Assembly: GCA_037968995.1 (NCBI GenBank)
Contig: JBBKWP010000363.1
Location: forward strand, 5,219 to 69,218
Source of the DNA: Candidatus Xenobia bacterium
Lineage (GTDB): Bacteria; Vulcanimicrobiota; Xenobia; Xenobiales; JADMJV01
Direction of reading: 5' to 3'
Length of the DNA stretch: 64,000 bases
The translations under genes were made by a program, and so were the position numbers. Every line of letters starts with the position of its first letter. Within the stretch, counting starts at the first letter, position 1. Positions 8,953 to 61,822 of this stretch are shown here, in pieces. The notes under the pieces were generated by a model. The model made no database searches, had not been told where the DNA came from, and saw only the letters and a program-made list of their open reading frames with translations.

Positions 8953-9561
8953 TTATCGGTAGGCCCGACGAACAGTGAGGTGAACTTCTTGCCCTCTTTG
9001 AACCTCTTTGCCAGCCCCTGGGTTTTGCTTAGTGACAGCCTCGTCTTCCTGATAGGAGGGTTCCACAAAACTGACTTTTCCGAGACGCAACTTGGAATTG
9101 GAGAGGGCGATTTTTGCCGATCGAAGCGACTCGCCTTCCAATTTGGGCACGACCATGAGTTCCGGGCCCAGGGAAACGGCCACTAGAACAGTGCGACCTT
9201 CTCTCACTTTTCGACCCGCCGGAGGGTTCTGGCTTAGGACAATCCTTTTAGCGACCTTCTTGTCGTGTCGGGACTCGTGGACCTGAAGCTTGAGACCCTG
9301 CTTTTCAATGGTGTCGTATGCCGTTTTGATTTCCATTCCCACGACCTTGGGGACGTCTTTTTCCGGGGGAATGAGAAAATAGTCGTCATAAATTCGAAGG
9401 CCGAAGACGCTGACAGACCAGATCGTAGCCGACAGTAGTATCATAGCCAATGCCACCGAAAAGAGCTTGCCGGCCCAACTATTTCCTTTCGCGACCAGCG
9501 ATTCCGTAAGTGGGGCCGTCTCAAGAATGTCGTCGTTTTGGCTGGAGGGTTGCTCGCTCAC
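8953..9561 (-). CDS. membrane-anchored protein with two PASTA domains (no kinase or transpeptidase domain)
   Basis: One TM (LFSVALAMILLSATIWSVSVF), then two PASTA-like modules (VPKVVGMEIKTAYDTIEKQGLKLQV and VPKLEGESLRSAKIALSNSKLRLGKV). The GTG start shares 1 nt with the upstream stop (TAGTG). Confidence 0.75.
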   Translation of the reverse strand: MSEQPSSQNDDILETAPLTESLVAKGNSWAGKLFSVALAMILLSATIWSVSVFGLRIYDDYFLIPPEKDVPKVVGMEIKTAYDTIEKQGLKLQVHESRHDKKVAKRIVLSQNPPAGRKVREGRTVLVAVSLGPELMVVPKLEGESLRSAKIALSNSKLRLGKVSFVEPSYQEDEAVTKQNPGAGKEVQRGQEVHLTVRRAYR

Positions 9562-10778
9562 TAATTCCCTACCCAGGGTGCCGGTGTGAATGCGGGGGTT
9601 GGAGCCGGACCTTGGGCCGAAGCCGGGGCGGCCTTAGGATCGGAGATCACGAGGTCAACGCGACTGCCAGCCACGGCTTCAATACCGGGACTAGGACGTT
9701 GACCTATCACCTCACCAAGAATTTCACCGTGACTTCTTCGAATGGTTCCGGGCACCAACCCGGATTTTTCGAGTTGGACCCGCGCTTCTGCCTCGGAGAG
9801 GCCGGAAAGGCTAGGTATTACAGCGGCCGCTGCTATTTTTACTTGCACCGAAGACTGAGCAGAGGTAAGCGGATCCCCGGAGGGAGGGTCTTGAAATGTG
9901 ATGACAGCCGTCTCGGGTGCGCTATCGGGAACCGACAGCGCGACTCCTTCGGTTGCCGCAAGTTTGCGGGCCGCGGCGATGGTTAGACCCTCGAACTGTG
10001 GGGCGTGGAGTCCGGTCTGACTGGACACATCGGGAGTCGTAACCGGAGCGGGGATCGGAATGAAGACGGTGACTCTCGCCCCTGCCCCCAATGTCTGCCC
10101 GGCCTCGGGTTCTTGGCGAAGGATGTAGGCTGGGTCACCGGCGCGGAAATTCTCTTGGGCCACTTCCTTGACCACCAGAGCGAGACCCAGGTTTTCAAGG
10201 GCAGTTTTGGCCTCAGAAACTGTCATGTCTCGAAGTTCAGGGACCTCAATTTCGCCTACTCCTCCTGAGATGGTGAGGGTCACCACGCCGCTCGGGACCA
10301 CTTTTTCGCCACCGATGGGCACCTGCGTGATGACGCGCCCGATCGGAACGGTCTGGGACTTCGCTTCCGCAAATTTGACTACGAACCCGAGTCGCAACAA
10401 CTGGTCTTCCGCTTCGGATCGCGTTTTTCCAATAAGGTCAGGCAGCGGGATCCCGTCGGGCCCTTTAGAGATCACTAAGGTGACGACACTCATTCTTGGC
10501 ATGGAGGTCCCTGCGGCAGGCTCCTGAGTGAGCACCTTGCCGTCGAACTCACTGCTCGTCGATTCTTGAATTCTCGTTGCGACGCCTAAGTTTGAGGCCT
10601 TGATTAAGGCGCTCGCTTCTGCGAGCGTCTTTCCGACGACGGATGGAACTAGGATTCGGCTGGGCTTTAAAAAAATCCAGGCCGAACACCCCAGGACAAC
10701 CATAAGAAGTCCGGCGGCGACGAATTTTCCGCGACCGGTCTCCGAGGCATTTTTGTTTGTTTTTTTACTCTTGGCCAC
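9561..10778 (-). CDS. membrane-anchored protein with five PASTA domains (no kinase or transpeptidase domain)
   Basis: TM FVAAGLLMVVLGCSAWIFL, followed by five ~65-70-aa modules. They begin VPSVVGKTLAEA, LPDLIGKTRSEA, VPELRDMTVSEA, APQFEGLTIAAA and IPSLSGLSEAEA. Ala/Pro-rich tail. Confidence 0.8.
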   Translation of the reverse strand: MAKSKKTNKNASETGRGKFVAAGLLMVVLGCSAWIFLKPSRILVPSVVGKTLAEASALIKASNLGVATRIQESTSSEFDGKVLTQEPAAGTSMPRMSVVTLVISKGPDGIPLPDLIGKTRSEAEDQLLRLGFVVKFAEAKSQTVPIGRVITQVPIGGEKVVPSGVVTLTISGGVGEIEVPELRDMTVSEAKTALENLGLALVVKEVAQENFRAGDPAYILRQEPEAGQTLGAGARVTVFIPIPAPVTTPDVSSQTGLHAPQFEGLTIAAARKLAATEGVALSVPDSAPETAVITFQDPPSGDPLTSAQSSVQVKIAAAAVIPSLSGLSEAEARVQLEKSGLVPGTIRRSHGEILGEVIGQRPSPGIEAVAGSRVDLVISDPKAAPASAQGPAPTPAFTPAPWVGN

Positions 10779-11029
10779 CGCCGTACTCCCTGTCGCCTGG
10801 TTAAGGACGAATTCCCGTTCGGAGTTCCTTGGATGGTTGCCTGCCCGTGGAAGACAAGGGCCTTTTATAGGCAGTTTTCTGCCTTAGAAACGGACAGACC
10901 AGATCGTTAGCCGACGGGCCCTACGAGAAGGAGGCATCAAGACGGTGCGGAAAGGAAACTTATAGCCAATTTATTCTATGGCAAGACTTCAGACAGGAGA
11001 TGCCCCTGTTTGTGGAGAGAGACTCTTCG

Positions 11030-13111
11030 ATGAAAAAGAAGTTGGGGCCCACCGGGCACAAGCCCGACCTTCCCGCTCGCGGTAAGGACAAAGCTGGAGA
11101 GCCGTCCAAGGGACTAACTCGAAAAGACGGATATTCTCGTTCCGCTCCGATGCGTCGCGACGACTTTGACAAGCCGCTTTTTGGAGACGTCGCCGACGAT
11201 GAACTAGAAGCGACCCTAGAAAAGATCGAAGCGAGTCTTTTAGAGGCGCCCACCGATCGGGACCTCCATATTCGTAAGTACAAGGTACTTAGAAAGCTCG
11301 GAGAGCGGGGAACGATGCGAGCCAGTCTCCAGTTCGCCGCAAGAGAGCTAAAAGATCCGTTTTTCGGGATCAAGCTTGCTGAGGCTCTCGAAGAGGAAGG
11401 CCGGTATCAGGCTGCTCTCGAGTGGAGGCGCTGGGTCATCCAGTTCGATGCCAACGACCCGGATTCGGTTCGTCGTCTAGCTGGAACAGCAGTTCGCGCC
11501 GGAGATTTCCAAACCGCTGAGCAGTCTTACTCCAAACTGGTGGAACTCCGCCAACGCGAAGACAATCCTTTGGGCGGGACTTTTTACGAAGAGATGTTGG
11601 GAAAGGGCCTCGACCCGCACAAACGTCGAGAGCTCCAACGGATCGGTTTGCGCCTTCTTGGGAAAGCTCTAGCTTTTCAGGACAAGAGCGGGAACCTGCT
11701 GGAAGCAGCCGCACGCCTGAGCTACCGCGTCCGTGACCTCGAGGCCTCGCGCGGATTCTACGAACGTGCTATCTCAACGAACAGTCACCACCGCAACACT
11801 AGGGAATGGAAATGGGAACTTCTACGGGTCCTGGCCGCTTCCGGTCACCAGCAAGCCTGGCGAGAGATGAACTCATCTTTCACGGCCGAGCTTCAGGAGT
11901 ACCTGAAAAATCACCGTGGAGATTCTCGAGCCTGGACAATTCTCGCTCGTCAGCAAATTCAGGGTGGGGAGTTTGAGCCTGCCATCGAGACTCTAAAAAG
12001 TGCTCTACGTGCCGACAGTCGAAATGCGCAAGCTTTGTGGGAGTTAGGGCGTCTGTACGTTCGGATGGGACGCTCGCAGGAGGCTGTCGATTACTATTCT
12101 GAGATCATCTTCGACCCGAATGAGAAACGTTCTGTTCGGCGCGCCATCGAGCGGGCATTGGCCGACCTTTATTTCAAGACCGGTCGGTTTCGCGAGTCTC
12201 TAGAGATCTATCAGCGTGAGTTGGAAACGAACCTCGCCATGATCGCGCCTATTTACGAAGCAGTGGATGAGTTGGAGACGGCCCAAGACTTCTATCTCCG
12301 TTCCGTGGTTCAGAGCCCCCGAGACGCTCGATCACATCTTGGGACCGCCGAGTATTGGGTACGACGTGAGGATTGGGACAAAGCTGTCGCGGCGGCTCAG
12401 GCCGGACTGTCTTGCACTTACGCTACGGAAGAAGTTCATTCCAACTTGGCGGTGGCATTGGCCACTTCACAGATGCGAACCGGCCAGGTCGAGGGCGCCT
12501 TGCAGACGATGGAAGAGATCTGCAACACCTACCCCGATTCGATCCATCAAACCTTTCGCAAGGTCAAGATTTTGATCATGCTCAAGCGCAAAGAAGAAGC
12601 ATTAGCCTTAGCCGACGAGGTGCGAAGCTCCGCGCAGCATCAAACTGGCTGCGCACCAGCGGAGTCCTCGCTATGGAGCCTTTTGGGAGACTGTCACTCC
12701 TTGCTCGGCAACACGCAGGCTGCCGAAGAAGCGTACAGTAACGCTCTCAAGTATGACTTCATGGATTCCATCGCAGTCCGGGGCCTTGGACTGGTGGCCG
12801 AGAAGCAGAAAGACTTCGCTCGGGCGTTGGAGATGTTCCAAAGATTCGTACTTCTGGATCCGCTGAATCTTGCGACACCGACCATTCGTCAACGGATCGA
12901 GGAACTGCGGGAGAAGGTTGGGCCTCAAGCCCCTGAAGCGACACCGGCACCGAGTCTGGTGGGAGAACCTTTGGAAGATGCCCCTATGGGTGGCGCTTCC
13001 GTCGCGGATATGCCGAGTCGAGAGGTACCCGCTCCTCCGCCCGTCGCCGAAGCCGACAAGGAAGGTTGGCTGGGTGGCGGGGACGACGACTGGTTCGAGC
13101 CCGATCGTTAG
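11030..13111 (+). CDS. TPR-repeat protein
   Basis: 703-aa ORF from 11000. I prefer ATG 11030 (MKKKLGP), which has an upstream GGAGAGAG. Multiple TPR-like units (e.g. AQALWELGRLYVRMGRSQEAVDYYSEII). Acidic/Pro-rich C-terminus. Confidence 0.75.
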   Translation: MKKKLGPTGHKPDLPARGKDKAGEPSKGLTRKDGYSRSAPMRRDDFDKPLFGDVADDELEATLEKIEASLLEAPTDRDLHIRKYKVLRKLGERGTMRASLQFAARELKDPFFGIKLAEALEEEGRYQAALEWRRWVIQFDANDPDSVRRLAGTAVRAGDFQTAEQSYSKLVELRQREDNPLGGTFYEEMLGKGLDPHKRRELQRIGLRLLGKALAFQDKSGNLLEAAARLSYRVRDLEASRGFYERAISTNSHHRNTREWKWELLRVLAASGHQQAWREMNSSFTAELQEYLKNHRGDSRAWTILARQQIQGGEFEPAIETLKSALRADSRNAQALWELGRLYVRMGRSQEAVDYYSEIIFDPNEKRSVRRAIERALADLYFKTGRFRESLEIYQRELETNLAMIAPIYEAVDELETAQDFYLRSVVQSPRDARSHLGTAEYWVRREDWDKAVAAAQAGLSCTYATEEVHSNLAVALATSQMRTGQVEGALQTMEEICNTYPDSIHQTFRKVKILIMLKRKEEALALADEVRSSAQHQTGCAPAESSLWSLLGDCHSLLGNTQAAEEAYSNALKYDFMDSIAVRGLGLVAEKQKDFARALEMFQRFVLLDPLNLATPTIRQRIEELREKVGPQAPEATPAPSLVGEPLEDAPMGGASVADMPSREVPAPPPVAEADKEGWLGGGDDDWFEPDR

Positions 13112-17492: not shown

Positions 17493-18464
17493 ATGCCTAC
17501 TTCAGATTCCAGTACACCTGCTTTGCAATCGGGCACGCTCTGTCCAACTCTGGACAGAGCAGTCGTGCTCTGGCTACGGAGCGTGCGCAATGAACTGGAG
17601 GCTCCGCAATCCCCACCCCAGGTACCTGCCGCTCATCCTTTACTCGGCTATCGACTTAATGGGTCTCCGGTCGGCGAACTTTTGGGAGTAGGTTCCTTCG
17701 CAACTGTCTTCGCGCTGAACGACCCTAAGGTCCCTCAGAGTCAATTGGCGGTAAAGATACTCAAACGCTCTGTTCGAGGAAAGAGTTGGGAGCAAGAGAA
17801 TGAGTCGTTCCGTCGTGAGATCGACATCGGAATGCGTCTTGAGCATCCATCTATCACTCGGATTCATCGATTTACAGAGAAGCAGCGGTCTCGATTTGTG
17901 GTGTTAGACCGCATCCACGGCCGAACGCTCGCGACCTTTCTGGAAAGCACATTGGCAACAGGTCGATACTGCGACCTTTTCCATCCGCTAGCGCTCGCTT
18001 TGGACTACGCTCACAGCATGGGTGTAATTCATCGAGATCTCAAACCCGAGAACGTCATGGTCACGCCAGAGGATCTCGTGAAAATTCTCGATTTTGGCTT
18101 GGCTCGCACCCGCGGCGGCAATCATGTAACGCTAACCGGAGAATTCAAAGGCACACCCAGGTACTGCGCACCGGAGCAGATCCAGGATTGCAAAAAGGTG
18201 GGACCAGCGACCGACCAGTTTGCCTTTGGCCTCTTGAGCTTTCAGGCCTTGACGGGGGTCCTCCCCTACCCCGAGTATCCCAAGGACCCAATGGAAACGC
18301 TTTTCTCACGGCTTCGACAACCCGCTCGAAGACTGTGTGATGAACTTCCCCAGGTACATCCTCAAGCCGATGAAGCCATCGCAAAGATGTTGAGTCGAAA
18401 CCCGGAGGACCGATTCCCATCGGTTGAGGAGGCGTTCGTCGCCTTTTCCGAGGCATTGACCTAG
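17493..18464 (+). CDS. Ser/Thr protein kinase (kinase domain only)
   Basis: LGVGSFATVF, AVKILK, HRDLKPENVMV, DFGLAR, CAPEQ. No TM or sensor domain. Confidence 0.85.
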   Translation: MPTSDSSTPALQSGTLCPTLDRAVVLWLRSVRNELEAPQSPPQVPAAHPLLGYRLNGSPVGELLGVGSFATVFALNDPKVPQSQLAVKILKRSVRGKSWEQENESFRREIDIGMRLEHPSITRIHRFTEKQRSRFVVLDRIHGRTLATFLESTLATGRYCDLFHPLALALDYAHSMGVIHRDLKPENVMVTPEDLVKILDFGLARTRGGNHVTLTGEFKGTPRYCAPEQIQDCKKVGPATDQFAFGLLSFQALTGVLPYPEYPKDPMETLFSRLRQPARRLCDELPQVHPQADEAIAKMLSRNPEDRFPSVEEAFVAFSEALT

Positions 18465-22178: not shown

Positions 22179-23624
22179 TTAGGTGTTGCTACTCTTTACC
22201 GTGTTGTCTTTTTCTAAGCGAAAGCCGTCGACGGTCGAAACCAGGAGATAGCTTTCCCCGGATTTGACCCGGCTCTTGAGCATTTCGGTTGCGATCATAT
22301 TCTCCACAGATCGCACAAAGCTTCTGCGTAAAGAATCCGCGGTGGAGTGGTTCTCCGCCATGAGTGAGGCGGCGATCTCGGGGGCTATTCGCAACCGGAT
22401 AGACCGCCGCTGCCAAAGTTTTTCTTCGAGTTCTCGCGACCAACGAGTCACAAGTTGGCGATACTCTGGTTCATCCAAGGGGGCGAAGAGAACGATTTCA
22501 TCGACTTTTTCGGTCAGTTCACTGCCTAAACCGCGTTCTAGGTCCGGAAGCAGTTCCTGTTCCATTCTCTCGAGGTCCATTCCGGCGCGGGCCGACAGCC
22601 TAAACCCCAAAGGTTGGTTGCGTTCCAAGAAATCCGCATCGATGTTTGAAGAAAGTACGATCACATGATCCCGAAATGATACGCGGTGCCCGTGTCCGTC
22701 GGTGGCGAAACCACGGCCCAAGATGTGAGTGATTCTCGCGATCGCACGTGGATGAGCTCTCTCGATGTTCTCTAGCAAGAAAATCGAATACGGATACTCC
22801 AGAGCGAGTCCCGTTAACAGACCGAACGGTTCCTCGCTCGACCCGGTAAGGCGATCCGCCTCCTCCTCACCGCTGAACTCTTCCATGTCGATACGCAGCA
22901 GTCGCTCCTCGTCACCGTAGAGGAGTGCGGCCAACAGGCGTGCCAGCGTGGCCTTTCCAGCACCCCGTGGCCCGATGAACAGGAAGGCTGCCAGAGGTCG
23001 ACGAGATTCGGCAAGTCCCGCCCACGCTCGCGTCAGAGTGGAGACCACCCTGTCGACTGCCGATCCCTGCCCTACCATCTGGTCGTTGAGCACGTCGCGC
23101 GCGCTCTGCATCCGTTCTTTCCATCGACGCATCTCGGCCTGTAGTGAGCGTTGGCCCTCCCCTTTTCGAAAAAAAGTTCTTGGGCGGCGACTGGTACGTT
23201 CGGTGATTCGCTCCTCCACAGCGGCGGCCCAACTGGTAAGATCGATGTCGAGATGGGTGAGAAGTTGGCACGCATCGGACTCGCGGTCCTTGAGAAGCGA
23301 CCAGAGAAGAGTGAGACTATCGGCTTCGGTGCCCTCGAGTCGCGCACTTTCTTCGGCAAGACGTACAATGCCGAGGGTTCTCAGGGTGGGTGGCGGGTTC
23401 TCTCGCGCGTAGGCGTTGTCACCCTTTCCCACTTGGCCGACGACTTCTTGACGCAGTCGCGAGAGCGAGAATTTTCGCTCTCGAAGAAACTTCGCGGCCG
23501 ATCCCTCTCGATATCCGAGCAAGCCCAACAAAAGGTGCTCTGGCCCCACGAAGCTATGTCCAAGGAGGCGGCACTCTTCTCGGGCCCGCTCCAGTGTAGC
23601 CTCGAATCCTGGTGTCCGCCTCAC
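22179..23624 (-). CDS. Clp_N-domain plus single ClpA/B D2-like AAA+ module, with non-canonical Walker A and B
   Basis: Clp_N: LERAREECRLLGHSFVGPEHLLLGLL. D2-like: MVGQGSAVDRV, FIGPRGAGKATLARLLA, IFLLENIERAHP, VIVLSSN, and a C-terminal D2-small-like region. The GTG at 23624 overlaps the upstream stop (GTGA). ATG 23660 is the alternative. The track start 23774 would overlap the upstream gene by ~150 nt. Confidence 0.75.
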   Translation of the reverse strand: MRRTPGFEATLERAREECRLLGHSFVGPEHLLLGLLGYREGSAAKFLRERKFSLSRLRQEVVGQVGKGDNAYARENPPPTLRTLGIVRLAEESARLEGTEADSLTLLWSLLKDRESDACQLLTHLDIDLTSWAAAVEERITERTSRRPRTFFRKGEGQRSLQAEMRRWKERMQSARDVLNDQMVGQGSAVDRVVSTLTRAWAGLAESRRPLAAFLFIGPRGAGKATLARLLAALLYGDEERLLRIDMEEFSGEEEADRLTGSSEEPFGLLTGLALEYPYSIFLLENIERAHPRAIARITHILGRGFATDGHGHRVSFRDHVIVLSSNIDADFLERNQPLGFRLSARAGMDLERMEQELLPDLERGLGSELTEKVDEIVLFAPLDEPEYRQLVTRWSRELEEKLWQRRSIRLRIAPEIAASLMAENHSTADSLRRSFVRSVENMIATEMLKSRVKSGESYLLVSTVDGFRLEKDNTVKSSNT

Positions 23625-25567
23625 GCCGGCAAGGTCTCCAAGTTGTAGTCTCCGTTCCATGCTAGAAGATCTTGCGCGCAACACACCACAGTGAACGGCT
23701 GTTCGTACCACAACCATGATGGACAGCGTAAAAGTCGAAATCCACCGGGTTGCGCGACGATGAGGTGGTCCCACTCTATCTCGAACTGGTGCATAGCCAT
23801 CAGACCGTCTTCTAAATTTGGAATGCCGTCGATGCTTCCCCGCAACCCGAGACGTCCCAGAACCAGAAGGCGTCGCGCCGGAAGCTTTCGGACGGTAGAG
23901 AGCAGTGCCACCAGGAGTGCGAAGGCCACGTTACCGAGATCACTATCCAGATGGGCGTCTTTTTCTAGCTCTTTCTGGGGAGTAGAGACAAGAGTGCTCA
24001 TGACTCGAAAACTCTTGGAAAGGTAAGACGAATCGAGGTTTTCGAGGACGCCTTTGGCCAGGTCGAGACTCGGCAGCAACTGGTCGCAGCCCCAACCAAA
24101 GAGTTGGTCTTTGACTCCGCGACCGAGTTCGGCTTCGAGCCGCAGAGTGTGAACGCTCCCATCGGCTGGGAAGGTGACGAAAACCTCTACCTCCTCGGAA
24201 ATGTCGCGAGTTCGATAGATTCCGTTCGGCCCCGACCGGGAGCCGTGGACGAGCTTACTCTTGAGCAGCGCCGAGAGTTGTTGAGCGCCGAACATCTTTT
24301 CTTGTGAGAAGAGCTGCTCAGCCAGTTCCCAGACTTCGCGAGTGTCGGGGAAGTTCGAGCAGAGCTGCTCGAGTTCCCTGAGGAGATTGGCAGGGCTCAG
24401 AGTTCGATTCTTCGCTCTTTGCCAGAGAGAAAGAACGGCCATGAGCGATTCTTCATTTCGGGCAGGCCCAACCTCGGAAGATTGGGGAACTTTCGGCCGA
24501 AGAGCTTTGAGGTCTCTCTCAACGTCTCGGCCCGCCAGTGCTTGGCTCCACAGATCCTCCAGGCGTGTGCGGAACGGTATCTCACCCTTCTCGAAGACCT
24601 GTTCATAAGCTGAGGGATCACGTAAAAGAGCGGCTTCGGTACTATAGACTGAGCAGGCTGACGACCAGAGCCCTTTGGAAAGAAGACCCTCTGCCCGCAA
24701 TCGATCGATCCGAGAAGGACCCGGCGGGAGGTCTGATAGCAAACTGATAAGTTCGTCATAGCGACCATTTTCCAGCATCAGTTCCGCGACTTCACTGAGC
24801 CCCTCGCTGTCGGAACGGTCGAGGTTCTCGGTGTTCTCCATTAGTGTGAGCGCGGTGTCCAGGTCTCCTTGCATTCTCGCAAGCTTGGCGACCATGATTT
24901 TGGCTTTGGTACCATTCCAATCTAAAGCAAACCGTTGCTCTTGCCAAAGACCGTCAGAATCGAGTTCCAAAACACGTTCGAATTCGCCGCGTGACAACTC
25001 AAGCGAACCTTCTTGGTAGGTCAGAAGACCTAACAGAAACCGCAAAGACGGCGAGTCCGGATCCGCTTCGAGTGCCAACATGGTCGACTCTTTGGTCTTA
25101 TCTGCGGAGTGTTCGCCTAACTGTTCAATAACGAAAGTGTAGAGAGCTAACGATTCGCGAACTTTTGAACTTGGCGCGATTTCGCTTCTTCGGATGTACT
25201 GTGGCCGGAGAAGGCGTAAATCCGTCCATCGATTGAGGACGACCAGTAGAGTGCCCACCCGGTCGAGGGGACTCATGGAGACGGGCTCGGCGTCGAGCCA
25301 CTGGAAATACGCTTCTAAAGCCTCTTCGAGTCGACCCTCCATTTCTCGAACCAAGCCAAGCCACTCCCAATAGAGGGCACGAAGGTCGGAGCGCGGGTCG
25401 AGTTCGATGGCCCGCTGATAACTCGCAGCAGCTTCGTCGACGCGATTGATTCTCAGAAAAGCTTCTCCAAGGGTCAGGCAAAGCTCAGACTCCTTGGGGG
25501 CTGCCCGAGAGCCCTCTTGAAGTTCTTCGAGCCGAACGCTTGAGGTGACGAGGTCGTCTTTACTCAT
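23621..25567 (-). CDS. TPR-repeat protein with C-terminal Lon-protease-like (S16) domain lacking the catalytic Ser/Lys
   Basis: N-terminal TPR-like helices (LGEAFLRINRVDEAAASYQRAIELDP...). The C-terminal ~165 aa (about nt 23732-24223) align by eye to Lon_C: DSDLGNVAFALLVALLSTVRKLPARRLLVLGRLGLRGSIDGIPNLEDGLMAM versus KDGPSAGIAM..ALVS......[25 protein letters not shown]. Confidence 0.65.
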   Translation of the reverse strand: MSKDDLVTSSVRLEELQEGSRAAPKESELCLTLGEAFLRINRVDEAAASYQRAIELDPRSDLRALYWEWLGLVREMEGRLEEALEAYFQWLDAEPVSMSPLDRVGTLLVVLNRWTDLRLLRPQYIRRSEIAPSSKVRESLALYTFVIEQLGEHSADKTKESTMLALEADPDSPSLRFLLGLLTYQEGSLELSRGEFERVLELDSDGLWQEQRFALDWNGTKAKIMVAKLARMQGDLDTALTLMENTENLDRSDSEGLSEVAELMLENGRYDELISLLSDLPPGPSRIDRLRAEGLLSKGLWSSACSVYSTEAALLRDPSAYEQVFEKGEIPFRTRLEDLWSQALAGRDVERDLKALRPKVPQSSEVGPARNEESLMAVLSLWQRAKNRTLSPANLLRELEQLCSNFPDTREVWELAEQLFSQEKMFGAQQLSALLKSKLVHGSRSGPNGIYRTRDISEEVEVFVTFPADGSVHTLRLEAELGRGVKDQLFGWGCDQLLPSLDLAKGVLENLDSSYLSKSFRVMSTLVSTPQKELEKDAHLDSDLGNVAFALLVALLSTVRKLPARRLLVLGRLGLRGSIDGIPNLEDGLMAMHQFEIEWDHLIVAQPGGFRLLRCPSWLWYEQPFTVVCCAQDLLAWNGDYNLETLPA

Positions 25568-55455: not shown

Positions 55456-56811
55456 CTAATGCTCGACGTTCCCCTTATTACGACGAAAAATAGCTGGCTC
55501 TAGTTCAATGTCCTTTAAGGCGCTGCCGAAAGTAATCTCTTCCTTCAGAGCGCCCAAGCTGAAGCCGCTGTCGTCATCGTCGAGCGGAGCGGGAGAACTC
55601 GATTGGAAGCCAGTCGCGACTACAGTGATGCGAATCTCCCCTTCCATCCGTTCGTCAGTGACCGACCCGAAGATGATCTGTGCTTCAGGATCGACGGCCT
55701 CAGAAATGATTCTGGCCGCCTCGTGGAGTTCGATCAGCGTCATATCGTTGCCACCGGTGATGTTGAAGAGAACTCCTGTCGCTCCATCGATGGAAGCTTC
55801 CAAGAGCGGCGAGCTGATAGCGGCCCTGGCGGCTTCCACTGCTCGGTTTTCACCGGAAGCGATTCCGATGCCCAGCAGAGCCGACCCGGCATCAGCCATA
55901 ATCGTTTGCACATCCGCGAAGTCGACGTTGATGCGGCCCGGGACCGTTATGATCTCGGAGATTCCCTGAACTCCGTTGCGCAAGACGTCATCAGCCAATC
56001 GGAAAGCCTCGGAGATATTCTCTTTTTCCGACACGATCTTCAAAAGACGATCGTTGGGTATGGTGATGATCGTATCGACACGACTTTTCAGTTCTTCTAT
56101 GCCTTGTTCGGCCATCTGCATGCGTCGTTGGCCCTCGAAGGAAAAAGGTTTGGTGACAACAGCCACGGTCAGAGCGCCGGCTTTACGAGCCAGTTCGGCG
56201 ACCACAGGTGAGGCACCGGTTCCCGTTCCCCCACCCATTCCGGCCGTAATGAAGACCATGTCGGCCCCTTCGAGAGCTTTAAGCACTTCGTCGGCGTTCT
56301 CTTCCACGGCCTTGCGACCGATCTCGGGCGCTGACCCCGCGCCTAGGCCGCGGGTGACCTGGGAGCCGATGTGGATCCGTTGGTCCGCGTCACAAAGAAA
56401 GAGCGCTTGAGCATCAGTGTTGATCGCGATGAATTCCACACCGCCGAGCCCTTCTTGGATCATGCGGCTGACCGCGTTACATCCCGCTCCACCGACCCCG
56501 ATGACTTTGATGCCGGCGAAGTGTTCCAGTTGATGTCGCTGCTCCGACTGCGGCGAGGGCTTTACCGGTGTGGTCAGACCTTGAGCCACAACGCTGGGCT
56601 TCACGATCGGATCCGGAGCAGTGCTCTGGATTGGAGGAGCCACGGGCACGACAGGCCGCGGCCGCGACAGCGTCGGCTTCTGGGACAGGGTCGGCGTCGA
56701 CGCGGTTGGGGGAAGTGGCTCTAAAGAGGGTTCCAAACTCGGTTCGAGGGCCGGACTTTGCGAGGCCTCGTTTGTTTCGGCACCTTGGCTTGCTTCGTAA
56801 CTTTCTTCCAT
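55456..56811 (-). CDS. ftsZ: cell division protein FtsZ with ~97-aa Pro/Ser-rich N-terminal extension
   Basis: [21 protein letters not shown], tubulin signature [17 protein letters not shown]-terminal peptide [15 protein letters not shown] 56811 (MEESYEAS) is preceded by AAGGTG. The TTG at 56871 would abut the mrdA stop. Confidence 0.92.
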
Positions 56812-56871: not shown

Positions 56872-58626
56872 TTACCGAGAAGAGACCCCAGAATCCTTCT
56901 TACTTTGAGTTTTCTTCCAAGCTTTGAACATTTCTTCCACCACCGGGGCGGCCACCTCTCCCCCGTAGCCGCCAGAACCTTCGAAAAAGGCGAGCCCCAC
57001 GACTTCGGGTTTGGTGGCCGGGGCCCATCCGACGAACCAAGTGTGGTTGAGGCCCAAAGGGTTGTCCACCGTCGTTGGAGCCTCAGCCGTTCCGGTCTTA
57101 CCCGCGACGTCTAAGTCCGGGACATAGACGTTGGCGGCGGTTCCATATAGGGTCGCGCCAAGGGTTCCCCGCCAAAGTGGCGCGAGCGCCTTTTCATTAG
57201 CCCACGCGGTTTTCACTAGATGGGGTTTCGATCGCACTATATGTGGGGTGACATCCGTCCCGGTCAGGAGACGGGCGGTTGCTGTGAGAAGTTGTATCGG
57301 GGTCACCAGAAGAAAGCCCTGACCGATTCCTAAATTGGCGGAGTCACCCGCATACCACGGTCGGCTATGATGTTTTCGAACATAAGCGGGGTCCGGCAAC
57401 AGGCCAGGGTTTTCCCCTGGAAGATCGATCCCCGTTTTCCCACCAAAACCCAAGTCCTGGGCGGTGGCCAACAGTTCTTCGACCGGCATCCTGGTGGCAA
57501 GATCGTAGAAAACCGTGTCGCAAGAAACAGCAATGGCCTCCTCGAAAGTCAGAAAGCCATGGCCGCTTGTGTTGAAACAGTGAAAAACCGTTTGGCCGAT
57601 CGTCTTGCTTCCGGTGCAGTAGAAGCGTTCGTCGGCCCAAGTGGGATGTTTGCGGAGGACGGCCGCGGCGGTGACGAGTTTAAAGGTCGACGCTGGCGGA
57701 TATAGACCGGCGATGGCTCGATTGACCAGCGGAGCGACGGGATCGTTGAGGAGTTGATCGACCTTCTTGTCTCCGGTCAGAAACAGTCGCGGGGAGAACT
57801 GAGGCCGACACGCCAGGCTGAGGATCTCCCCTGTTGATACGTCCATCAGGATGGCAACGGCCGGGGCCTTGGCTCTTCGGTTGGGACGCTCGACCAAGGA
57901 TTGAAGGACGCTGTCGATTTTGCTCTCTGCCGCTTTCTGGATCTCAAGGTCTAAGCACGTGACCAAGTCTTTCCCGTCCTGCGCCTCGAACTCTTTGATC
58001 AAACCCAGCGGGACCCCGGTAGCGGAGAGGAGCATGGTCCGGATCCCCTCGATCCCGCGGAGTTGGGAATCGTAGAATGCCTCGAGCCCGTCCACTCCTT
58101 TCGTCGTCACTCGCTCGCCGACGGAACCTTCGATAGCTTCTTCGCGGACGTAGCCAAGAAGATGACAGGCTAACTGGTCGTGGGGATAGGCGCGAGTGGA
58201 AATCTCCTGAATTTCGAGTGCCGAACTTCGACTCACCAAGTCTGAACCGGCGGCCAGCGCCGCGTACTCCAAGGGGACAGACTGACCCTTGAGGAGCTTC
58301 TCAGTGCGCTCCTTGCCGAACAATTTCGCAAGGGCGGTCTGCAGTCCCGGTTCAGGAACGCCGTAGCGCTTGAGGCGCAAGAGAAATCTAGGAACGTGGT
58401 CTACAAGGACCCGTCCCGTGCGGTCCAGGATGCGACCCCGTTCCGGCGGTTCAAGAAGGTTAGTGGTCTGTTGCTCACGGGCGCGTTGCGACCATCGCGT
58501 CGGCCCTCCCATTTGCAACCAAAGGATTTTACCCAGTACCAAAAGCGTGGTCACCATAAGCAGACAGACGACGAGCGCGAAGCGCCGGCTAGAATATCCA
58601 TGAAGATAGAGATCCGCACCCGTCAT
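56872..58626 (-). CDS. mrdA: penicillin-binding protein 2 (elongasome transpeptidase)
   Basis: TM ALVVCLLMVTTLLVLG, SxxK (ASTFK), SxD/N (SCD), KTGT. ATG 58626 overlaps the mreD stop (ATGA). Confidence 0.88.
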   Translation of the reverse strand: MTGADLYLHGYSSRRFALVVCLLMVTTLLVLGKILWLQMGGPTRWSQRAREQQTTNLLEPPERGRILDRTGRVLVDHVPRFLLRLKRYGVPEPGLQTALAKLFGKERTEKLLKGQSVPLEYAALAAGSDLVSRSSALEIQEISTRAYPHDQLACHLLGYVREEAIEGSVGERVTTKGVDGLEAFYDSQLRGIEGIRTMLLSATGVPLGLIKEFEAQDGKDLVTCLDLEIQKAAESKIDSVLQSLVERPNRRAKAPAVAILMDVSTGEILSLACRPQFSPRLFLTGDKKVDQLLNDPVAPLVNRAIAGLYPPASTFKLVTAAAVLRKHPTWADERFYCTGSKTIGQTVFHCFNTSGHGFLTFEEAIAVSCDTVFYDLATRMPVEELLATAQDLGFGGKTGIDLPGENPGLLPDPAYVRKHHSRPWYAGDSANLGIGQGFLLVTPIQLLTATARLLTGTDVTPHIVRSKPHLVKTAWANEKALAPLWRGTLGATLYGTAANVYVPDLDVAGKTGTAEAPTTVDNPLGLNHTWFVGWAPATKPEVVGLAFFEGSGGYGGEVAAPVVEEMFKAWKKTQSKKDSGVSSR

Positions 58627-59135
58627 CGTGGGTCCCTCCTCGGCCCCAAAAGGCTGCGAAACAGCAAAAGAAAAAGTATGTTGGGCCAAGCTTCGGCCAG
58701 AAGGGATCCGGCCAAAGTGGTTCCCGAGATCGTGAGACTCACAGGGACTCCCGAAAAACTCATCATCAGGAGCTTACCGGTGCATCGGCTGATCGTGATC
58801 AAGACTGACGAATAGACGAGGAAGGCCGGACCGGAAAGCCGTTCGGAACTATCAGATTGACTTCCCAGCGCCTGCACAGCAAGCCACGCGGGCCAGCCGA
58901 TCAGGAAACTCCAGACCGGCGCGACGCCTGACAGCAGCGACCCGCTTACCAGCGTCAAAGCCCATACTCCAAGGCCGTATCGCGCGGGTAAACCGAGGCG
59001 GTACAACATCAGGGCTAAGCAAAGACCGACGTCGCCTGCCGGACCCGAGAGGCTACCGAGGCGGGCCCATCCCCGCCACCACTGCCACAGGAACGCCAGC
59101 GCGAGGCTTAGAATTGTTCGGGTGGTCAACGCCAC
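58623..59135 (-). CDS. mreD: rod shape-determining protein MreD
   Basis: 170-aa polytopic hydrophobic protein between mreC and mrdA. GTG 59135, or TTG 59129 (TTGA overlap with the mreC stop). Called mainly by size, topology and synteny. Confidence 0.7.
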   Translation of the reverse strand: MALTTRTILSLALAFLWQWWRGWARLGSLSGPAGDVGLCLALMLYRLGLPARYGLGVWALTLVSGSLLSGVAPVWSFLIGWPAWLAVQALGSQSDSSERLSGPAFLVYSSVLITISRCTGKLLMMSFSGVPVSLTISGTTLAGSLLAEAWPNILFLLLFRSLLGPRRDPR

Positions 59136-59854
59136 CAGATGAGGACCTCGGCGGGGGTCGACGGCAAAGCCGTGAAAGTTGCGAACTGGCGGTCCTTGTC
59201 AACCGTCCCGACCTGCAGCCCTTTGCTGTAGAGATGACCTAGTCCTGAGGTTCGCACTCCGTCCGACTCTACGATCTGGTCCTCGGCTCCGCTCGTTACC
59301 GGTCGGAGCGACAATGCGGGTCCGCCACGACCTTCCAACAGGAACGGAGATTGGCGGTCGCCTACTACCACGGAGAGCTGCGTCTCTGGCGAGCTCAGTA
59401 GGCGGACGCGCCCGCGGAAAAAACGTTCGTCTCCGGATTGGACCAACACGATGTCGGCATTGTCGAGACTGCCGATCACGCCTTGGGGCGTAAGAACCAT
59501 CGCGGTCTCTTTGGGCGGATTGGCTTCAGGTGAGTCAAATTCCACAGTCAGAAAGCTCCACCAGGAATCCGGGTCGCGTCGAGTAACGCGTGCCGCTACA
59601 ACCTGACCAGAGAGCCTTGACCGCAAAGAGAGAAGCTGGTGAAGCGAGGCGTTCTCCTCCCGGATCGAAGACGACACAGGATAGGTTCGCGCTGAGGGGG
59701 GTGTGTGAAAACGACCTCCCGCCAAACTGTAGAGAGCGCGATCGGCGAGGGCAAAGAGTGACGTCTCAGGACTGTTTGCCAAAAACGGCCACGAGAAAAC
59801 CAGCAAAACTAGCAACGTCAGAAGTGCTCCGAGTAACTCGTTCTTCAGCTTCAT
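59126..59854 (-). CDS. mreC: rod shape-determining protein MreC
   Basis: N-terminal TM (LLGALLTLLVLLVF), coiled segment, beta-barrel region with VGSLDNADIVLV..., and the C-terminal SDGVRTSGLGHLYSKGLQVGTV motif. ATG 59854 shares 1 nt with the upstream stop. Confidence 0.82.
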   Translation of the reverse strand: MKLKNELLGALLTLLVLLVFSWPFLANSPETSLFALADRALYSLAGGRFHTPPSARTYPVSSSIREENASLHQLLSLRSRLSGQVVAARVTRRDPDSWWSFLTVEFDSPEANPPKETAMVLTPQGVIGSLDNADIVLVQSGDERFFRGRVRLLSSPETQLSVVVGDRQSPFLLEGRGGPALSLRPVTSGAEDQIVESDGVRTSGLGHLYSKGLQVGTVDKDRQFATFTALPSTPAEVLIWWR

Positions 59855-60825
59855 CAAGCGACGGACCGGTTCATCCAGTTCCTGGTAAGGAGCACAGTCA
59901 GTGGCCCCCGAGGGATAAGCGTGCATCCCGGAAATCCTAGGATGGAGCTCACGGGATCCGTTGAAACGTCCTGAGGCCCGTCACCTAACAGGTCGGACCA
60001 GCTTTCTTGGATTCTTCGCCATTCGTACAAAAAGGGCGGGTCTGTGCTCAAGAACTGTTTCCAGGAAAATCGACAGCGTGTAGGCAGGCCGGAGAGTGTA
60101 TGCCGACCGGCGACTGCGACCTCGAGGGGGTCAGACTTGCGGTCCTCCTCCAGGTCCTTGGAATTCTCCAAGAGTTCTGCAAGAGATCGTGAACTAAGGT
60201 CTACAAGGCATTGCGTTCGAAGGTGGTCTTTGATCTGTCGGGCGACTTGAGCGTACGAGAGCCGCAAATCCGTGCCCTCCGAAACGACGCCGGCACCCCT
60301 TAAGAGGGTCCATTGGGTTTGTGTGGGCTGCAGATCTACCAAGAGATGGAGAGCTTGGCAGCCAGCCTTGAGACCACCGCAGGCTTTGACGAGCTCGCGC
60401 TGCCAAGACTTTAGCGTGCCCACAGAAGAAAACGGGGAGTCCTCGAGGGCTTCGTTCCACAAATCCCGAACCCAAGGCCCGGCAACGGAGGCTGGCAGGT
60501 AGAGTCGGCAAGGTTTAAAGTTGGGCAGATACTTCTGATGGAATAGGCGAAGGAACTGACTTACTTGGGCTGCGTCCACCGGTCGTTCATCGTGGAACAC
60601 CGCCAGTGGCTTAGTCCGCGCCCCTCGCGGGACCCAGTCTTGAGCTCGAGCGCCCCAATGACTCAATTGGCCGTTGCTTGTAAAACGCAGGTAGGCGGGC
60701 TCGCTGTGCAGGAGAAACCTGCGCTCGTCCTTGGACCACAGCCACAGGCTGAACCGGTCGCCCGTCGTTTCCGCTATTGCGTAATCGGTTCCCGTTGGCC
60801 ACCAGTCTGGACTAGGGTGTGTCAC
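59854..60825 (-). CDS. highly divergent MreB-like (actin-fold) protein with degenerate nucleotide-binding motifs
   Basis: It occupies the mreB slot of maf-mreB-mreC-mreD-mrdA. By-eye collinear alignment to MreB follows. [17 protein letters not shown]...SEPAYLRF matches DLSIDLGTANTLIYV...[50 protein letters not shown] matches [65 protein letters not shown] matches [31 protein letters not shown] matches DPLTCVA. GTG 60825 overlaps the maf stop (GTGA). Confidence 0.6.
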   Translation of the reverse strand: [323 protein letters not shown]

Positions 60826-61442
60826 TTGCCAAATTCCCAAGGGAATCCGGCTTGCGCCAGCAGTACACGCAGATCCCGCAGAGGGAGTCCAACCACATTG
60901 TAGTAGCAGCCCTCGACGCCTTTGATCAAGGTAGCCCCTGGGCCTTGAATTCCGTAGCCGCCAGCTTTATCGAAGGGGTCTCCTGTCTCGACGTAGCTAG
61001 CTATCAAGCTTTCGCTCAGCTCATCGAAGTCCACCCACGTTCGACGCCAGACCTCATGAACTGTATCGCCGTGAAAAAGCCAGAGAGCCGTCACTACGCC
61101 GTGACGTCGACCCGACAGGGTGCGAAGAAATTCGAAGGCCTGCTCTGAATCGGAAGGCTTATCAAAGAGCCGAGCCCCGAGGTGGACCACCGTGTCCGCG
61201 GCCAAAACCGACGGGGATACTTGGCCCTCGACCTCGAGAAGGTCACGAAGGATGGCTTCTCCTTTAGCGCGAGCACGCCCAGCGGCGACCAACTCAGCCT
61301 CCCCTCCTCGACCCACACCGGCGATGGATTCTTCTACGCTGTCGGGTGCTGGGCGGGCGAAAAATGGGACACCTAGCTCTTCCAGGAGGCGCCGTCGCCG
61401 TGGAGAATGGGAGGCCAAACATAAGAGATTGTGGCTTGTCAT
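60822..61442 (-). CDS. maf: Maf-family nucleoside triphosphate pyrophosphatase
   Basis: LASHSPRRRRLLEELGVPF, ADTVV and DKAGGYGIQG. Confidence 0.9.
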   Translation of the reverse strand: MTSHNLLCLASHSPRRRRLLEELGVPFFARPAPDSVEESIAGVGRGGEAELVAAGRARAKGEAILRDLLEVEGQVSPSVLAADTVVHLGARLFDKPSDSEQAFEFLRTLSGRRHGVVTALWLFHGDTVHEVWRRTWVDFDELSESLIASYVETGDPFDKAGGYGIQGPGATLIKGVEGCYYNVVGLPLRDLRVLLAQAGFPWEFGK

Positions 61443-61519
61443 TAGCGAGGAGTTTAACCCGCCTCTCTGTGACCGGTCAAGGAGAGAGAAGTTTGAAGGA
61501 TTGCCCTGATCTCGCCGCG

Positions 61520-61822
61520 ATGAGCACCGCGGAACGAGCCGATTTTTGGTCCCAAACGGACCCCCGCGAGCTGCGCCGCCTCGGCGATCGCCTGCTCGCC
61601 GAGTGCCTACCTATTTACGAGCGTACCGTAACGCGAGAACTGTTGAGCGAGCAAATCGTCCGCGGTCGCGAAGAGGCTGGATGGACTCGTGCTGAGGTTG
61701 CCGATTTCCTCGGCGTGACCGAGAGTCTCGTGCAAGCCTGGGAAGAAGACGAGGTCAGCCCGCCGGACTCCCTACCGCTCATCTTAGCCCGACTTTCCAT
61801 CCTGGTGACTCAAGGGGAATGA
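61520..61822 (+). CDS. XRE-family helix-turn-helix protein
   Basis: HTH segment GWTRAEVADFLGVTESLVQAWEEDEVSP. ATG 61520 preferred because the track start 61346 overlaps maf. The stop overlaps the lgt ATG (ATGA). Confidence 0.6.
   Translation: MSTAERADFWSQTDPRELRRLGDRLLAECLPIYERTVTRELLSEQIVRGREEAGWTRAEVADFLGVTESLVQAWEEDEVSPPDSLPLILARLSILVTQGE

Follow-up and report, generated by a model that had tools for sequence, protein, structure and literature searches.

Why does a cell-elongation operon carry, in the place of mreB, a gene whose product no protein family model recognizes? MreB is among the most conserved bacterial proteins, and the ATP-dependent dynamics of its polymers are regarded as central to growth in the form of a rod. 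We met this question in a stretch of 64 kb (hereafter the window) from contig JBBKWP010000363.1 (assembly GCA_037968995.1) of a Candidatus Xenobia bacterium, a member of the Vulcanimicrobiota, the phylum formerly named Ca. Eremiobacterota. All positions below count along this window. We use X as a label for the gene in the mreB slot:

59854..60825, minus strand: gene X, encoding a 323-amino-acid (aa) MreB-derived actin-fold protein devoid of the nucleotide-binding motifs, with a GTG start codon at 60825

A longer open reading frame (ORF) of 328 aa (59854..60840, minus strand) uses an alternative TTG start at 60840. As detailed below, X is an actin-fold protein derived from MreB.

X is a divergent descendant of MreB

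Homology between X and MreB escapes the comparison of single sequences. Taken alone, X had no match in Pfam, NCBIfam, or the PDB sequences, even at permissive thresholds. BLASTP detected no significant similarity to Escherichia coli MreB (E=0.43), the best segment being collinear and spanning the hairpin of subdomain IIB. Word-indexed homologue searches returned only one or two relatives. An exhaustive HMMER search of 1.84e9 representative proteins gave only ten, which make an 11-member family with the window protein. Hence, the X family is very small. Its alignments lack any conserved stretch of 7-10 aa.

The family taken as a whole gave a clear answer. A search of the PDB with its profile resulted in seven matches, all to MreB (E=1.2e-4 to 0.16), in a collinear alignment that pairs positions 43-260 of the query with positions 24-246 of MreB. 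When we compared the family by hhalign with an alignment of 13 MreB sequences, assembled from the loci fetched for the analysis, we obtained a probability of 92.6% and an E-value of 6.3e-8 over 299 collinear columns. The Pfam model of MreB (PF06723, MreB_Mbl) had weak matches in 3 of the 11 members (best E=3.4e-4); the window protein had none even at E<=10, and the gathering threshold of 27 bits was not reached. The Pfam scan of the 11 proteins revealed no match to FtsA, ParM, PilM, Hsp70, or other actin-like families. The preliminary description of this locus had aligned X and MreB collinearly by eye, and the significant family-level comparisons bear it out where single-sequence tools are blind.

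We then turned to structure, as the same description had proposed in order to check for similarity to the actin fold. AlphaFold2 run on a 2-sequence alignment gave a model with a predicted local distance difference test score (pLDDT) of 33.6, which was discarded. The monomer model built on the 11-sequence alignment has a pLDDT of 82.8, a predicted template modeling score (pTM) of 0.77, and an order of secondary-structure elements similar to that of MreB. In a Foldseek search of the PDB, ranks 1-25 were all occupied by MreB chains (E=5e-16 to 5e-14, 10-16% identity), the nucleotide-binding domains of Hsp70 appearing from rank 26 onward (E~3e-10). X is thus predicted to keep the four-subdomain fold of actin and MreB (IA, IB, IIA, and IIB), closest to the structures of MreB.

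The nucleotide-binding and catalytic motifs have degenerated

We compared the motifs column by column through the hhalign correspondence, between the 13 MreBs and the 11 family members, using the numbering of E. coli MreB. The elements of X concerned are the following:

60736..60786, minus strand: equivalent of the phosphate-1 hairpin, 17 aa (model strands 19-26 and 29-36)
60397..60402, minus strand: Q147-R148, at the position of the E142-E143 pair of MreB, which holds the catalytic Glu (CcMreB E140)
60298..60348, minus strand: equivalent of the phosphate-2 hairpin, 17 aa (model strands 164-170 and 175-181)
59887..59928, minus strand: equivalent of the adenosine motif in the hhalign register, 14 aa (model strand 306-311 and helix 313-318)

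Canonical phosphate-1 reads D16-x-G18-T19-x-N21. In the X family, the D16 position is acidic, and G18, T19, and N21 are kept in no member. The E142-E143 pair has become Q-[R/H]. In phosphate-2, D165-I-G-G-G-T-T-E is replaced by D169-L-Q-P-T-Q-T-Q in the window protein and by variable, often acidic loops in the other members, such that across the family T170 is changed to Q, R, A, S, E, or G and E172 to Q, S, R, V, or H. These positions matter for catalysis: the catalytic motif E...T-x-[D/E] corresponds to E140, T167, and E169 of CcMreB, and its T-x-[D/E] pair is needed for hydrolysis (PMC9597168). The adenosine T-G-G-G-A-L-L of MreB is I-P-R-G-P-L-T in X, with one mostly conserved Gly (G312). 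The AlphaFold2 model has a strand at 306-311 followed by a helix, which supports the hhalign register of this element. In summary, G18, T19, N21, E143, G167-169, T170, E172, and T294-G296 are replaced family-wide, often by acidic or bulky residues, and the replacements are themselves unconserved (columns 167-172 are variable). No member of the X family retains the catalytic motif or any of the three glycine-rich loops that bind nucleotide in MreB.

This largely agrees with the changes previously read from the window. The replacement of DLGTANT by AETTGDR in phosphate-1 was correct, apart from an offset of at most 1 residue and an insertion of 2 aa, and that of DIGGGTT by DLQPTQT in phosphate-2 was exact. 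For the adenosine motif, given as LTGGGALL changed to ILGFPGCTL, the degeneracy holds, but the placement was about 8 residues too far upstream in the register of hhalign and of the model.

Features that X shares with MreB and features of its own

Outside the nucleotide-binding loops, one element stands out for its likeness to MreB and another for having no equivalent in it:

60076..60114, minus strand: hairpin of subdomain IIB, 13 aa, the best-conserved stretch relative to MreB (xRGRDLxxGLPK)
60796..60810, minus strand: N-terminal PDWWP, a family-specific P-x-W-W-P (W-V-P in two members) that hhalign leaves unaligned

The residues G245 and P253 of the IIB hairpin are invariant in the X family. 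X and MreB also have in common an 'EP' strand, a helix matching 'G.EAK.M.GR', and the 'GR...SGLP' of IIB. Surface elements of IB and IIB are kept. With these tips conserved, X may still self-associate or contact a surface of the MreB type. PDWWP has no counterpart in canonical MreB. The conserved motifs that are specific to the family are PxWWP, AGRxxxSGLP, and W177, an invariant residue of the phosphate-2 hairpin.

The proteins of the family are rich in tryptophan, with 13-20 residues each (4-6%), against 0-2 (0-0.6%) in canonical MreBs. Several are conserved, namely W13, W14, W62, W69, W123, W128, W177, W260, and W274 (numbering of the 328-aa form). One may speculate that PxWWP and this enrichment serve contacts with the membrane interface or with partners, or else fill the empty cleft. 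At the other extremity, the C-terminus ends around 16 residues past the adenosine turn, about 30 aa shorter than in MreB, so that the strand and helix with which MreB ends are missing from X.

X is embedded in the elongasome operon

The neighborhood of X contains the following genes and overlaps:

60822..61442, minus strand: maf, at the head of the operon (PF02545, 1.9e-49)
60822..60825, minus strand: GTGA overlap between the start codon of X and the stop codon of maf (window letters TCAC; same 4-nt overlap in locus L001)
59852..59856, minus strand: TGATG overlap between the stop codon of X and the start codon of mreC (window letters CATCA; same 1-nt overlap in L001)
59126..59854, minus strand: mreC, 242 aa, with an ATG at 59854 inferred from the L001 orthologue (PF04085, 3.7e-10, and NCBIfam MreC models)
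58623..59135, minus strand: protein of 170 aa with multiple transmembrane segments in the mreD slot (a positional label), conserved in all loci of the X lineage defined below
56872..58626, minus strand: PBP2, a class B transpeptidase (PF00905, 3.8e-51, and PF03717) with intact STFK, SCD, and KTGT motifs
about 55456..56811, minus strand: ftsZ (TIGR00065, 5e-132), directly 3' of PBP2

These genes (maf, X, mreC, the mreD slot, PBP2, and ftsZ) are all on the minus strand and tightly packed. The start and stop codons of X overlap maf and mreC; hence X is translationally coupled with its neighbors inside the Mre/PBP2 elongasome operon. The closest homologue of X (P0001, in L001) has the same length of 323 aa and both types of overlap. 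The placement of X between maf and mreC in the preliminary description agrees with the matches of Maf and MreC, and the two overlaps that it gave are exact on the letters of the window. The protein in the mreD slot had no match in Pfam and no detectable similarity by hhalign to the MreD of the outgroups or of E. coli. A sigma-70-like promoter site lies just 5' of maf (61480-61451), among a number of such sites that is not above chance.

X evolves fast, under purifying selection

A gene that diverges this much could be decaying. We compared the window with L001, a locus that is 79% identical, and computed the ratio of nonsynonymous to synonymous substitution rates (dN/dS). The value for X is 0.115, at 74% amino-acid identity, next to 0.099 for mreC, 0.146 for the mreD-slot gene, 0.095 for PBP2, and 0.012 for ftsZ, which is far more constrained than the other four. 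The X ORF is intact in all relatives (309-335 aa), and at least 10 divergent homologues are free of frameshifts. These results indicate that X is a real, functional gene under purifying selection. The possibility that it is a functionless relic carried along inside the operon, to which we give hardly any credit, could draw on its rate of evolution and on the failure of database families to recognize it, but it is at odds with this dN/dS, with the conserved length, with the conservation of PxWWP, W177, and AGRxxxSGLP, and with a confidently predicted fold.

The rate itself is clearest against locus L005, where X outpaces every other gene of the block, with amino-acid identities to the window of 25.5% for X, 39.9% for the mreD slot, 41.6% for mreC, 53.5% for PBP2, and 84.4% for FtsZ. 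For comparison, the canonical MreBs of E. coli and of Actinomycetota share 50-58% identity. X has been freed from the constraints that usually act on MreB and is subject to weaker, family-specific ones. FtsZ is nearly identical in the window and in L005, for which a chimeric scaffold or a recent transfer might have been responsible; we rejected both because synonymous sites have diverged (DNA identity is only 77.5%).

The MreC of the window, too, is weakly recognized: it scores 40 bits, where its counterparts in the outgroups reach about 130. With the unrecognized protein of the mreD slot added, the whole MreB/C/D module is thus fast-evolving in the clade, while PBP2 and FtsZ are not.

Sequencing or assembly error is excluded as a cause of the motif loss, since the same degenerate motifs recur under purifying selection in 10 or more independently assembled homologues. 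With its fold kept, its motif residues lost, and purifying selection acting on it, X has the attributes of a pseudo-ATPase pseudoenzyme, one that would not bind nucleotide.

X looks like the resident mreB, diverged in place

To delimit the organisms carrying X, we used the homologues of PBP2. The search revealed a discrete clade of around 27 clusters at 52-84% identity, then a gap, then PBP2s at 35-40% identity, two of which are from Eremiobacterota by NCBI name. We refer to the clade as the X lineage and read eight of its loci. The family members with readable contigs lie in L001-3, L005, L007/8, L009, L010, and L094; L095 spans only the mreD-PBP2-ftsZ end. The order maf-X-mreC-mreD-PBP2 is invariant in all seven loci covering the slot. 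Each readable family locus has a divergent pair, lgt and a gene for a helix-turn-helix (HTH) protein, followed by maf-X-mreC-mreD-PBP2 and, on contigs that are long enough, by ftsZ-polX.

The nearest outgroup, L093, has a canonical MreB in the exact slot of X (maf-MreB-mreC-mreD-PBP2), scoring 349.5 bits with PF06723 and carrying the motifs DLGTANT, DVGGGSS, and CGGGSLL. About 70 loci of Actinomycetota also have a canonical MreB in this slot. When the L093 MreB serves as a tblastn query, X genes come up directly (E=5e-7, with 27% identity along 183 aa), and the X profile scores 44.8, 39.3, and 35.0 bits on MreBs of Eremiobacterota against 14.4 on that of E. coli. In a neighbor-joining tree built from BLOSUM distances, X is monophyletic (100%) and falls inside a clade of Eremiobacterota MreBs (100%). 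Since the canonical gene of L093 is in the identical slot, we read X as a replacement in situ: most parsimoniously, the mreB that resided in the slot has diverged there, and X looks like its positional orthologue more than like an additional paralogue. A search of the 64-kb window by tblastn with E. coli MreB gave no second MreB-like gene, and outgroup MreBs, used in the same way on X-lineage loci totaling around 197 kb, detected nothing but the X genes themselves, with no canonical MreB and no tandem copy, in what is a small fraction of the genomes. Hence, of the two origins that had been left open for a pseudo-ATPase MreB, paralogue or replacement, the slot of L093 favors the replacement and the paralogue loses ground; the loss of the motifs, claimed at the same time, is upheld by the column comparison.

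A probable scaffold, and the readings that compete with it

What might such a protein do? In our opinion, X is probably an in-situ descendant of mreB that has turned into a pseudo-ATPase and serves as a nucleotide-independent scaffold of the MreC/MreD/PBP2 complex. Binding or hydrolysis of ATP is unlikely, because the glycine-rich loops and the catalytic residues are gone and acidic or bulky residues stand in the loops. X would work in the cytoplasm as a scaffold or adaptor. It would be made at a constant stoichiometry to MreC, the mreD-slot protein, and PBP2, and would physically associate with these proteins. Its association with MreC would be what sister lineages do covalently, with the MreB-MreC fusions described below. 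X would not be a dynamic, treadmilling, or ATP-cycling filament. We infer the scaffold role, its choice over that of a regulator, the association with MreC, and the loss of nucleotide binding from the homology, fold, motif loss, selection, and synteny that we observed.

Several observations weigh against this interpretation. The template modeling scores of the MreB matches in Foldseek are only around 0.55, with root-mean-square deviations of 6-8 Å, and the structure model depends on the 11-sequence alignment only. The finer position of X within the clade of Eremiobacterota MreBs is unsupported (bootstrap of 30-41%), in a distance tree with long branches where long-branch attraction is a concern. 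The cytoplasmic tail of MreC preceding its transmembrane helix has only around 6 aa, which limits the direct contact that X could make with MreC in the cytoplasm. Acidic residues stay at both of the Mg-coordinating Asp positions in most members (E24 in the window and D in most members at phosphate-1; D169 or E at phosphate-2), and the binding of nucleotide through non-canonical residues is compatible with the sequence evidence alone. Finally, a canonical mreB could lie elsewhere in the genome, given that around 197 kb were inspected and that mreB duplication occurs in the phylum.

This last point is the basis of an alternative that we find unlikely, while giving it real weight. X would be an extra paralogue, and an ATP-dependent canonical MreB encoded elsewhere would be modulated by X acting as a cap, nucleator, or inhibitor, or would be linked by X to MreC/MreD. 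The phylum has precedents, since the two outgroup loci L091 and L092 each have two MreB domains in tandem, and a small fraction of each genome is visible to us. The IB and IIB elements contribute to longitudinal contacts in MreB and are the best conserved in X, which might dock with them on the end of a MreB filament. The searches described above found no second MreB-like gene, tandem copies occur in no X-lineage locus, and X sits in the exact slot of what is a single canonical mreB in L093, all of which count against an extra copy. We regard it as improbable that X, for all its divergence, is still an active enzyme or polymer of the ASKHA type, binding and perhaps hydrolyzing nucleotide or another phosphorylated ligand in a remodeled pocket. 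The two acidic positions would fit such a pocket, as would the Gly that stays in the adenosine turn and the geometries of both phosphate hairpins, which are kept in the model. Yet the glycine-rich loops, the catalytic Glu, and T-x-[D/E] are all replaced, by residues that are not conserved in the family, and the Glu, Asp, or Gln often found at loop positions would repel phosphates. The recruitment beside mreC of another actin-fold or ASKHA protein, of the FtsA, PilM, ParM, or Hsp70 type, is very improbable. It could find some comfort in the low identity with MreB (10-16%) and in the presence in the operon of ftsZ, which could hint at a role like that of FtsA, but the PDB profile, the weak Pfam matches, and the top 25 Foldseek matches point exclusively to MreB, the MreB of L093 matches X by tblastn, and the slots of the two genes are identical.

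Comparison with known actin-like systems

Canonical MreB (PF06723; Caulobacter crescentus 4CZJ, Thermotoga maritima 1JCG, E. coli) resembles X in fold, in the collinear profile, and in the slot upstream of mreC/mreD/PBP2. As a family, MreB is marked by polymerization on membranes into antiparallel double filaments that depends on nucleotide. It differs from X by having the three motifs and E...T-x-[D/E], a longer C-terminus, few Trp, no PxWWP, and a slower evolution. The nearest described precedent for X is MreB3 of Spiroplasma (SpeMreB3), which lacks the catalytic E...T-x-[D/E], releases Pi very slowly, keeps the nucleotide-binding loops, binds ATP and AMPPNP, and polymerizes on nucleotide binding (PMC9597168). 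Both proteins are without the catalytic motif, but only X has also lost the binding loops. Furthermore, SpeMreB3 belongs to a set of five paralogues in a bacterium that has no cell wall, whereas X is in an operon of peptidoglycan synthesis.

PilM and FtsA offer another comparison. They are actin-fold, membrane-proximal adaptors for envelope machines rather than force-generating polymers, and their nucleotide-binding motifs are kept; X has no specific affinity to them in sequence or structure.

The MreBs of L091 and L092, from the Eremiobacterota metagenome-assembled genomes (MAGs) GCA_037189345.1 and GCA_017307785.1, share with X the phylum, the operon, partly degenerate phosphate motifs, the cluster in the neighbor-joining tree, and the top scores of the X profile. 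They differ in scoring 194-264 bits with PF06723 and in having an adenosine motif that is largely preserved and phosphate loops that are partly so. In addition, one of their MreB copies is covalently fused to MreC, while X is separate and translationally coupled. The fusions are single ORFs of 642 aa (L091:5594-7522) and 618 aa (L092:5717-7573), made of a MreB domain, a linker, a transmembrane segment, and a MreC domain; in L091 and L092, respectively, they score 251 and 201 bits with PF06723 and 131 and 128 bits with PF04085. A separate MreB gene precedes the fusion in both loci, giving the tandem mentioned above, and mreD-PBP2-rodA follow. The phosphate motifs have already degenerated in part in both MreB copies, e.g., VVEIGAETT, VVHAGAGVV, and VLHIGAGRC. 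We found no description of MreB-MreC fusions or of an X-like protein in Eremiobacterota in the literature searched. These fusions argue that a fixed MreB-MreC unit is viable, perhaps favored, in this phylum.

The erosion of MreB motifs is not unique to Eremiobacterota, as revealed by a divergent MreB found in the normal slot of an Actinomycetota MAG (CAVSZD010000010.1; L036:7683-8729). It is 42% identical to E. coli MreB, with 'SMGAGCT' at phosphate-2 and 'LLPTALAAAIG' in place of 'IEEPMAAAIG'.

Ovococci such as Streptococcus pneumoniae elongate with MreC/MreD/PBP2b without MreB, in a process organized by FtsZ. The X lineage would be like them in having the machinery of MreC, MreD, and a class B PBP without a dynamic MreB, and in it ftsZ follows PBP2. 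The ovococci have lost mreB entirely, whereas the X lineage retains a remodeled MreB descendant under selection. The linkage with ftsZ is consistent: ftsZ is directly 3' of PBP2 in L001, L005, L094, and L095, i.e., in every X-lineage locus long enough to include this region, while in the outgroups L091-L093 PBP2 is followed by rodA or unrelated genes. The FtsZ of the X lineage has a Pro/Ser-rich N-terminal extension of about 100 aa, conserved even in L005. The presence of ftsZ after PBP2 only in the X lineage suggests that the Mre/PBP2 machinery may be used there in an FtsZ-organized manner, as in the ovococci.

Other genes of the window

No domain of RodA/FtsW, RodZ, or FtsA was identified among the window ORFs that were scanned. 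The HTH protein next to maf (61493-61822, plus strand, 109 aa) is of the XRE type and divergent from maf, and its stop codon overlaps the start of lgt (ATGA, 61819-61822). It adjoins the operon in all X-lineage loci and is absent from this position in the outgroup L093. All 4 of the 4 orthologues had sub-threshold matches to HTH_25, a family of the RodZ type, beside better ones to the generic HTH_3 and HTH_31. A role as a RodZ-like partner is possible but unsupported.

Farther away, the window has two adjacent ORFs made only of PASTA repeats, four in one and two in the other (9561-10778 and 8953-9561, both on the minus strand), with no kinase or penicillin-binding domain. It also has two eukaryotic-type Ser/Thr protein kinases (42589-44574, minus strand, and 17493-18464, plus strand), one of them fused to a long TPR array, and further large TPR proteins at 11000-13111 and 23621-25567. 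A scan of the whole window with Rfam gave no family at its gathering score.

Significance of the X family

On the present sequence evidence, X is best regarded as a new family of putative pseudo-ATPases within the actin-like superfamily, derived from MreB and so far unannotated. Neither Pfam nor NCBIfam has a model for it, and no member is named in the sources that we searched; the literature searched did not describe a MreB pseudo-ATPase family of this type. Being unannotated, X would lead genome surveys to score these organisms as 'MreB-absent'.

The X clade is a natural separation-of-function variant, where the fold and the operon context are under selection and the nucleotide elements have been discarded. 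It opens the question of what MreB can do in the elongasome without cycling ATP: scaffold MreC/MreD/PBP2, associate with the membrane, or contact FtsZ or RodZ. The MreB-MreC fusions with half-degenerate motifs suggest a trend across the phylum, and they provide 'Rosetta-stone' evidence for a direct functional unit of MreB and MreC. We propose, tentatively and as a possibility that we would not yet favor, that X is the only MreB homologue of its clade, a static, Trp-rich, nucleotide-free adaptor that ties the Mre module to FtsZ-organized growth. If true, the clade would be a natural experiment in which the ATP cycle of MreB is dispensable for Mre/PBP2-based elongation, and X together with the MreB-MreC fusions of its sister lineages would trace a stepwise path from a dynamic filament to a fixed scaffold.

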